The position numbers were made by a program, and so were the translations under genes. From a virus (taxonomy: Duplodnaviria; Heunggongvirae; Uroviricota; Caudoviricetes): 25,811 nt of DNA. The notes beneath the pieces were generated by a model. The model was not told the origin of the DNA and ran no database searches. It saw nothing but the letters and a program-made list of their open reading frames with translations. Of the stretch, positions 5,828-6,399 are shown one piece after another; the stretch's first letter is position 1, and every line of letters begins with the position of its first letter. The stretch lies in IMG/VR virus record IMGVR_UViG_2778261502_000009; one strand, 5' to 3'.

Positions 5828-6006
5828 AAGCAACTCCATCTGGCAGGTGAAAATCATGTTTATTTATATATTTCAATTAATTGCAAACTGGTCTAATGAC
5901 AGGGAGAAAAAAATATTGTACAGGTGAAAAGAGAAATAACTTTTAATTATCAATAAATTACCAAACATGCTGCCGCCGCCATGGAAATGCAAAAACTAGC
6001 CTTTTT

Positions 6007-6025
6007 CCGCGACGCTCCCGCCCCG
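6007..6025 (-). other. cos site (cosN-like nicking region); cosB expected between here and the terminase small-subunit start
   Basis: Plus strand CCGCGACGCTCCCGCCCCG and flanking ...GGACCCG closely resemble the reverse complement of the lambda cosN region as I recall it (CCGCGAGGTCGCCGCCCCG ... GGACCCGT). The spacing to the Nu1-like start (about 188 bp) matches lambda. Confidence 0.6.
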
Positions 6026-6052
6026 TGGCAGGGGCCCCCACCGGGAGGACCC

Positions 6053-6076
6053 GACAGCCTGACAGCCTGACAGCCG
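6053..6076. repeat. Tandem octamer repeat GACAGCCT x3 beside cos
   Basis: gacagcct gacagcct gacagccg read directly at 6053..6076. Confidence 0.8.
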
Positions 6077-6399
6077 TGACGAGCATCTGATACAGCGCTT
6101 TACATAATGGCATAGGAATAATTCAGAAGGACATCACAGCATGCCCACACAAATTAGTGTGAGTGTCCTGTTTCTTCCTACGCACAGGACTGACGAGCAT
6201 GAGGGGAAAATATGCGAACCATAAATGCCTCATCTTCAGCAATGCAGCCGGCATCCGAACAGGACGATATTGTAAATTCACCTAATTACGAGGACATTGC
6301 AGTAGTTGAATTGCAGCTCTGTATTAGCCTGACAGTGACAGAATGCGATATTGACTCTGTCACAGGTGAAATAGTTTGAATGATTAGCAGTTATGGTGC

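Follow-up and report, generated by a model that had tools for sequence, protein, structure and literature searches.

The segment at 5828–6052 of the window (the whole 25,811-nt stretch of DNA analysed here, IMG/VR record IMGVR_UViG_2778261502_000009) is very probably (probability of about 0.87) the complete cos site of a Tritos/cdtI-type lambdoid siphovirus at the Qin locus, in a prophage that has undergone one recent deletion and whose packaging genes have not yet decayed. Judged from its sequence, the segment is a genuine lambda-type cos that is already represented by the known phages Tritos and cdtI. Read on the minus strand from 6080 to 5827, the region consists of three copies of GGCTGTCA, the heptamer GGGTCCT, a 22-nt spacer, cosN, the segment AAAAAGGCTAGTTTTTG, a G+C-rich stretch, an IHF match, an AT-rich stretch and the ATG of the small terminase subunit gene (TerS). 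The features of its cosQ–cosN end are as follows.

6053..6078, minus strand: octamer GGCTGTCA, three tandem copies directly outside cosQ (repeat)
6046..6052, minus strand: cosQ core GGGTCCT, packaging-termination signal, equal to the 7-bp lambda cosQ core
6007..6028, minus strand: cosN, 22-bp equivalent of lambda cosN (similarity to lambda and phage record ends)

The minus strand at 6007–6028 reads CCACG/GGGCGGGAGCGT/CGCGG (slashes mark predicted nick positions), as compared with TTACG/GGGCGGCGACCT/CGCGG in lambda (J02459), with 16 of the 22 positions identical; a lambda-like cosN on the reverse strand, which the earlier note had recognized, is therefore present where that note placed it. The predicted 12-nt 5′ cohesive end GGGCGGGAGCGT (6012–6023) is mismatched to lambda GGGCGGCGACCT at bp 7, 8, 9 and 11 only, its left half (bp 1–6) being identical, and CG dinucleotides flank both nick positions on the minus strand (CACG/GGG and CGT/CGCGG), as in lambda. 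The nicks would fall between 6024 and 6023 on the minus strand and between 6011 and 6012 on the plus strand. The cosQ core lies 22 nt from the nick, compared with 23 nt in lambda, in which we take cosQ to be the GGGTCCT at bp 48473–48479. The same GGGTCCT core is present in cdtI, Tritos, HannyBb, mEp460, PhiR40_1 and VT1-Sakai.

Lambda-like phages have been defined by 12-nt 5′ ends similar to those of lambda (Feiss et al. 2015, PMC4669245), and the features conserved among their cos sites are the cohesive end's left half, the nick-flanking CG dinucleotides and the 7-bp cosQ, the last being highly conserved (PMC4669245). Every one of these published features was found at 6007–6052. Positions 7–12 of the cohesive end are naturally variable (N15 differs at 9 and 12, and Gifsy-1 at 8, 9 and 11; PMC4669245), and the differences between the window and lambda are the Gifsy-1 set plus bp 7. 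Natural variation of cosQ is reported to be not apparent; the cosQ-core position reads AGGTACT rather than GGGTCCT in Gifsy-2 (L015) and in four further loci (L137–L139 and L142), upstream of a TerS of the DUF1441 family. The octamer GGCTGTCA is present in three copies in the window and Tritos and in two copies in HannyBb, mEp460, PhiR40_1 and ST866; the array could reflect slippage or form an accessory site.

The ends of two phage records coincide with the predicted nick. By BLASTN of 5700–6400 against phage records, position 1 of the cdtI record (AB285204) corresponds to window position 6023 and the last base of the Tritos record (OV696610) to 6024. The mEp460_4F5 record, a point against this nick, opens 5 nt away from it and has 3 nt of the cohesive end missing; three independent depositors have thus opened records at the nick or within 5 nt of it. 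Across the 253-nt cos region, the window differs from the joined Tritos ends at two positions, 5904 and 5857. No description of how the cdtI, Tritos and mEp460_4F5 ends were set (by experiment or by analogy with lambda) was found in the literature, the Tritos paper (PMC9928086) does not mention cos and a literature search for the cohesive-end 12-mer returned nothing relevant. Among the IMG/VR matches listed, the cohesive end was internal to the contig in every case. Tritos is prophage 3 of E. coli LF82, and shows spontaneous induction, plaques on MG1655 and siphovirus morphology by imaging (PMC9928086).

These data bear on the idea that the cosN resemblance is a chance match of G+C-rich sequence, with the true packaging site elsewhere or with packaging by the headful, which we regard as extremely improbable. 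Experimental end-mapping for this phage group was not found in the literature, and the record of phage Ayreon has an insert of about 170 nt at the cohesive-end position. Against such a coincidence, a degenerate cosN pattern matched once in the 25.8-kb window where 0.01 matches were expected by chance, cosQ stands at the correct spacing, cosQ and cosN are conserved among phages with flanks that are only around 80% identical, the large terminase subunit (TerL) is a gpA-family protein, of the cos type, the position of the site, 197 nt upstream of TerS, is like that in lambda, and the three depositors' records open at the site or within 5 nt of it. The Ayreon insert (MF807953, last ~650 nt, aligned to 6007–6028) lies exactly at the place of the 12-nt cohesive end of relatives, with the order CCACGGGG, insert and GGAAAAAGGCTAG, and carries a small open reading frame (ORF) annotated as a 'putative late gene regulator'; if the insert is real, cosN of that phage would be disrupted or relocated.

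Between cosN and TerS, the reading of the segment as a complete cos draws on a cosB-like interval with the following features.

5990..6006, minus strand: I2-like segment AAAAAGGCTAGTTTTTG with phased A5 and T5 tracts (conservation)
5965..5972, minus strand: conserved block CAGCATGT, candidate TerS site at the lambda R3 position, between I2 and the IHF site (footprinting)
5948..5960, plus strand: IHF consensus match TATCAATAAATTA (consensus WATCAANNNNTTR; pattern match)
5921..5930, minus strand: first copy of TTTTCACCTG, candidate TerS site at the R2 position (10-nt exact direct repeat)
5844..5853, minus strand: second copy of TTTTCACCTG, candidate TerS site at the R1 position, 17 nt before the TerS ATG (repeat)

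The interval 5828–5960, which includes the IHF site, is 73% A+T as compared with 54% window-wide. The IHF consensus WATCAANNNNTTR has a single match in the window (TAATTTATTGATA as read on the minus strand), inside this interval, where 1.96 were expected over 25.8 kb; the match is 64–76 nt from the cohesive end, is conserved in mEp460 and in two of the closer relatives (L137 and L138), and makes 5948–5960 a candidate IHF-binding site. Beside cosN, GGCTAGTTTT (5992–6001) is invariant in seven loci with TerS proteins that are 61–100% identical, and is also found with a TerS allele of 42% identity. In lambda, I2, which lies between cosN and cosB, is a static bend required for packaging (PMC4856287), and the AAAAAGGCTAGTTTTTG segment may have a comparable bend role.

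The CAGCATGT block and the two TTTTCACCTG copies are candidate TerS-binding sites. Footprinting of the block over loci with TerS homologues gave CA(G/C)CA(T/G)GT, with an inverted CACCTG core in L140 and L142, and the (A/C)CTG core at both TTTTCACCTG copies is conserved in relatives (phylogenetic footprinting, TerS 61–84% identical). The repeat level of TTTTCACCTG was reached in 58 of 2,000 shuffles of the 184-nt interval (p about 0.03, weak support). The orientation of the candidate sites departs from the R3–I1–R2–R1 scheme of lambda, and a search for repeats of that style gave weak AT-rich pairs only. A perfect 10-bp palindrome, CAATTAATTG, lies at 5874–5883 in the cosB-like stretch, between the TTTTCACCTG copies. 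No promoter-like or terminator-like signal above expectation was found in 5700–6700.

Set beside lambda cos, the segment has cosQ, cosN and an IHF match, and the lambda R sequences are absent. This is relevant to whether the site has lambda specificity, that is, whether lambda or phage 21 terminase would recognize it and start packaging here, as the Nu1 comparison in the earlier note would imply. The shared cosQ, left half of cosN and flanking CG dinucleotides are what such a reading would predict; the cosB region, however, bears no resemblance to the R sites of lambda, TerS has no sequence relationship with Nu1 and initiation specificity in lambda-like phages resides in the TerS–cosB interaction (PMC4669245), which makes initiation by these terminases very unlikely. 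Lambda terminase might at most terminate at the 6007–6052 site.

The predicted packaging genes follow cos on the minus strand.

5300..5827, minus strand: TerS, DUF1441 family, 175 aa (Pfam PF07278, E = 1.6e-44)
3192..5291, minus strand: TerL, gpA family, 699 aa, full length (Pfam GpA_ATPase and GpA_nuclease)
2983..3195, minus strand: W-like head–tail adaptor gene, 70 aa (collinear with Tritos TRITO_3, 'Neck-tail adaptor Ad1')
1475..2983, minus strand: portal, lambda family, 502 aa, full length (Pfam Phage_portal_2, E = 1e-81)

All four genes are uninterrupted, in line with the earlier description of intact small and large terminase, gpW-like and portal genes. TerS is identical at the amino acid level to that of Tritos and cdtI (0 of 175 differences). 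The conserved ATG of TerS (5827) is 197 nt from base 1 of the cohesive end (6023), with the lambda Nu1 start at 191, which agrees with the spacing of about 190 bp first proposed. The start at 5857 in the earlier note is absent in Tritos and cdtI: the in-frame ATG (5855–5857) lengthens the TerS ORF to 185 aa, owes its existence to one base that differs from both phages and also occurs in the full-length ST866 prophage, and the conserved starts are 5827 and 5839.

The small subunit had also been called Nu1-like, a label that does not hold at the sequence level: DUF1441 is the sole Pfam assignment, and lambda Nu1 is matched by BLASTP at E = 4.6. TerS belongs instead with the small subunits of Gifsy-2, mEp460, VT1-Sakai and cdtI, and also mEp043, and its relatives in Gifsy-2, mEp460 and mEp043 are annotated as terminase small subunits. 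No PDB sequence match was found for TerS. An AlphaFold (AF2) model (pLDDT 83) has an N-terminal strand–helix–helix–strand–strand–helix unit, with best Foldseek matches to MerR-type winged helix–turn–helix (HTH) proteins, Xis and phage TerS DNA-binding domains that were all non-significant (E > 0.09). The DNA-binding domain of Nu1 is likewise described as a MerR-like winged HTH.

Two side observations concern this family. Among IMG/VR loci (L018–L097), an identical 24-nt cosN plus I2 occurs with either of two TerS alleles, of which one is 100% and the other 42% identical to the TerS of the window; in the 42% group, TerL is ~75–88% identical to Tritos TerL over residues 20–699 and the first ~19 residues are unalignable. 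One cosN with two TerS alleles and matching TerL N termini looks like a natural packaging-specificity swap of the lambda/21 kind. In three database proteins (P0096, P0109 and P0111), a DUF1441 N terminus is fused to ClpP-protease or other phage domains; these fusions probably arose through other in-frame deletions as prophages of this type decayed.

TerL matches PF05876 (GpA_ATPase, E = 4e-80) and PF20454 (GpA_nuclease, E = 4e-86) without stops, and is 24% identical to lambda gpA over an alignment of ~600 residues (E = 2e-22). It differs from Tritos TerL at 5 of 699 residues. Decay of TerL was considered as the source of these differences and rejected, as four of the five (S247, S539, Q660 and S667) are also found in the full-length ST866 prophage. 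The sole change relative to ST866 is at nt 3806 (codon 3804–3806), giving V496M, which is private to the window and immediately precedes a conserved Asp (AMA[V/M]DSGG; lambda CWDTGG); this one private change of TerL is a point against the main reading. The W-like gene has a weak Pfam match to DUF6148, and the portal differs from that of Tritos at 5 of 502 residues.

The window is a lambdoid prophage at the Qin locus of E. coli, with the order ydfJ–ydfK–pinQ–tfaQ ... int–rspB of annotated homologous loci. All the Qin marker coding sequences (CDS) are present (dicB, hokD, rem, ydfU, cspB/F/I, pinQ and tfaQ), and Rfam identifies DicF, a sok antitoxin RNA beside hokD and two cspA-type thermoregulator leaders (cspI and cspB), at 21005–21056, 15134–15305, 8289–8674 and 11185–11577. 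Complete prophages sit at the same locus in NRG 857C and ST866. Collinearity of the window with Tritos extends from the integrase, past cos, to Tritos nt 4725, in the capsid gene, at which point the predicted packaging module meets the far end of the tail region.

1299..1530, minus strand: remnant (~77 codons, ~232 nt) of a fusion gene for a ClpP-like prohead protease and major capsid protein (BLASTN and Pfam)
102..1298, minus strand: side tail fibre gene, last 1.2 kb (1,198 nt; Pfam Collar and Phage_fiber)
1–102: start of tfaQ (similarity to JNEC-KY202)

At 1299, about 77 protease/capsid codons run directly into the final 1.2 kb of the gene for the side tail fibre, and ~17 kb of head and tail genes are missing; the capsid and tail genes noted earlier as absent are accounted for by this deletion junction. 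The BLASTN match to Tritos and cdtI runs to Tritos 4725 and ends, JNEC-KY202 matches in two pieces that join at window position 1299, an 81-aa ORF fragment of the capsid-gene remnant matches Pfam CLP_protease and the tail fibre/tfaQ segment is 99.6% identical to JNEC-KY202. A chimeric ORF of 421 aa (102–1367, minus strand) crosses the junction, running from an out-of-frame ATG in the protease remnant into the tail fibre C terminus (Collar and fibre-repeat domains). No other lesion was found in the prophage: integrase, excisionase, regulators, Q and lysis genes are intact, and each of the 31 CDS in the right arm of the complete NRG 857C prophage has a full-length counterpart in the window.

Whether cos and terminase have been kept, as had been supposed, or have simply not yet been lost can be judged from close relatives. 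Across 1299–5300 (capsid remnant, portal, W-like gene and TerL), 1 of 4,002 nt differs from the ST866 prophage, which occupies the same locus and is complete, its head and tail genes all being present. With so little divergence from a full-length prophage, selection has had no time to operate, and cos and the packaging genes look intact because the deletion is very recent, not because they have been retained. A 301-nt probe for the junction at 1299 was found in 0 of 5,426 complete E. coli genomes, and none of the complete E. coli genomes matched the window over its full length. Other junctions occur in KV7 (L146), APEC O78 (L002, 11 genomes), JNEC-KY202 (L001, with IS3) and SCU-115, and prophage fragments with the same cosN in IMG/VR include truncated TerL, cos alone and deletion of TerS–TerL; in K-12 Qin, only a Nu1 homologue is left, beside a tail fibre remnant. 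Together these loci show the normal spectrum of prophage decay, and the window, with its very recent single deletion, is a case of recent decay and not of conservation.

At least five different head–tail deletion junctions are present at the Qin locus across strains. In KV7, APEC O78, JNEC-KY202 and the window, one deletion end is within the protease/capsid gene; in KV7, APEC O78 and the window, the other is in the side tail fibre gene. JNEC-KY202 has IS3 beside an intact tail fibre gene, and in SCU-115 tfaQ appears beside the portal gene. Selection was considered as an explanation for such repeated terminase-sparing deletions, and was rejected as ascertainment, given that the search found only variants keeping both flanks.

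We also weighed the possibility that the packaging module (cos, TerS, TerL, adaptor and portal) is selectively retained for a function in a capsid-less element, which might be that of a helper-dependent satellite with its own terminase, interference with related phages by cutting of their cos or the initiation of packaging of adjacent chromosome. The intactness of the packaging genes, cos, integrase, excisionase, regulators, Q and lysis genes would fit such retention, as would the several independent deletions at the Qin locus that spare TerS through portal, and cos-bearing islands that hijack lambda-like helpers do exist in E. coli (PMC6092414; PMC9026076). The stretch from TerL to the capsid remnant is, however, a single nucleotide away from a full-length prophage, the junction is private and has left behind a gene remnant that looks random and a chimeric ORF that is out of frame, and the apparent sparing reflects a search that was limited to variants keeping both flanks. 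Truncated TerL, cos alone and loss of TerS–TerL are common in relatives (with only a Nu1 homologue in K-12 Qin), the element has no Rpp-like or capsid-size-redirecting gene, and cos cleavage by lambda in vivo needs proheads. Selective retention is accordingly a doubtful reading, to which we give very little weight.

For a recently deleted prophage with a complete cos, we propose the following course by homology to lambda. Late transcription, under the action of the Q antiterminator, would yield TerS (DUF1441) and TerL (gpA family), and the packaging genes are expected to be expressed on induction. TerS, aided by an IHF bend, would bind the AT-rich cosB-like stretch and position TerL on cosN, and nicks 12 nt apart would generate the 5′ ends GGGCGGGAGCGT. 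Packaging would run towards the terminase genes, with cosQ plus cosN ending packaging at the next cos. In this copy, the single deletion took out the protease/capsid gene from codon ~77 onwards and all that followed, up to the distal part of the side tail fibre gene.

The element alone is a dead end, and its cos and terminase can matter only in trans, if a related helper or superinfecting phage packages the element or recombines with it. The earlier note had envisaged that such an element could cut its own or a related phage's cos DNA without producing particles. In vivo, unlike in vitro, cos cleavage by lambda depends on gpFI as well as on assembled proheads (PMC4856287), which makes autonomous cutting doubtful. 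Passive roles are more realistic, with the element as a substrate for the terminase of a related helper or as a donor of cos/terminase alleles by recombination; DLP12 keeps cos and nu1, which are functional in lambda and stimulate recombination (PMC3945230). That the capsid-less prophage is still inducible, given its intact integrase, excisionase, regulators, Q, lysis genes, terminase and portal, and that, with a co-resident or superinfecting phage of the Tritos/cdtI type, it behaves as a terminase-carrying satellite using its own terminase on its own cos is highly improbable. If it did, helper proheads would be loaded with multimers of the 26-kb element or with adjacent chromosome on the ydfJ side, and the site would be a natural origin of cos-initiated transduction.

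The analysis places cos and the predicted cohesive ends for a packaging module that is very common in E. coli prophages, being carried by hundreds of complete genomes and by at least 119 contigs in IMG/VR. As a case of prophage decay, the window is one more snapshot at the Qin locus, of little import beyond annotation. Such remnants would nonetheless be ready sources of cos/terminase alleles for recombination with infecting lambdoid phages, as for DLP12, and prophage-prediction tools could score the packaging genes as 'intact' in an element that cannot make capsids. The cos is real but ordinary and already known, in a newly decapitated prophage of the Qin type.

The closest known systems compare as follows. 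The window shares with Tritos and cdtI the cosQ–cosN–cosB sequence, an identical TerS, TerL and portal proteins more than 99% identical and gene order, and with Tritos also the chromosomal locus; unlike them, it lacks everything from Tritos capsid-gene nt 4726 to the distal tail fibre, and has another immunity/replication mosaic and a tail fibre remnant like that of K-12 Qin. With lambda cos it shares a 12-nt 5′ end with an identical left half, flanking CG dinucleotides, the 7-bp cosQ, A/T tracts beside cosN, an IHF consensus in an AT-rich stretch, about 190–200 nt to the small-subunit start and a gpA-family TerL, whereas it differs at bp 7, 8, 9 and 11, in the cosQ–nick distance (22 rather than 23 nt), in having no lambda R sequences, in a TerS of the DUF1441 rather than the Nu1 family and in a TerL that is only 24% identical to gpA.

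K-12 Qin has in common with the window the locus, dicB, DicF, hokD/sok, cspB/F/I, rem, ydfU, pinQ and tfaQ, and in DLP12, as here, cos and a small-terminase gene survive in a prophage unable to make particles. Both K-12 prophages have small subunits of the Nu1 family (nohA and nohD) and have lost TerL, whereas TerL, adaptor and portal are intact in the window, which is far less decayed than either. Cos-type PICIs (for example, EcCICFT073) are likewise chromosomal elements with lambda-like cosQ and cosN and no capsids of their own, but they are about 10–15 kb, lack terminase and portal genes and use Rpp to redirect the helper TerS. The window, in contrast, is a prophage remnant of 26 kb that itself encodes TerS, TerL and portal, has no Rpp and is collinear with a full phage but for one deletion.
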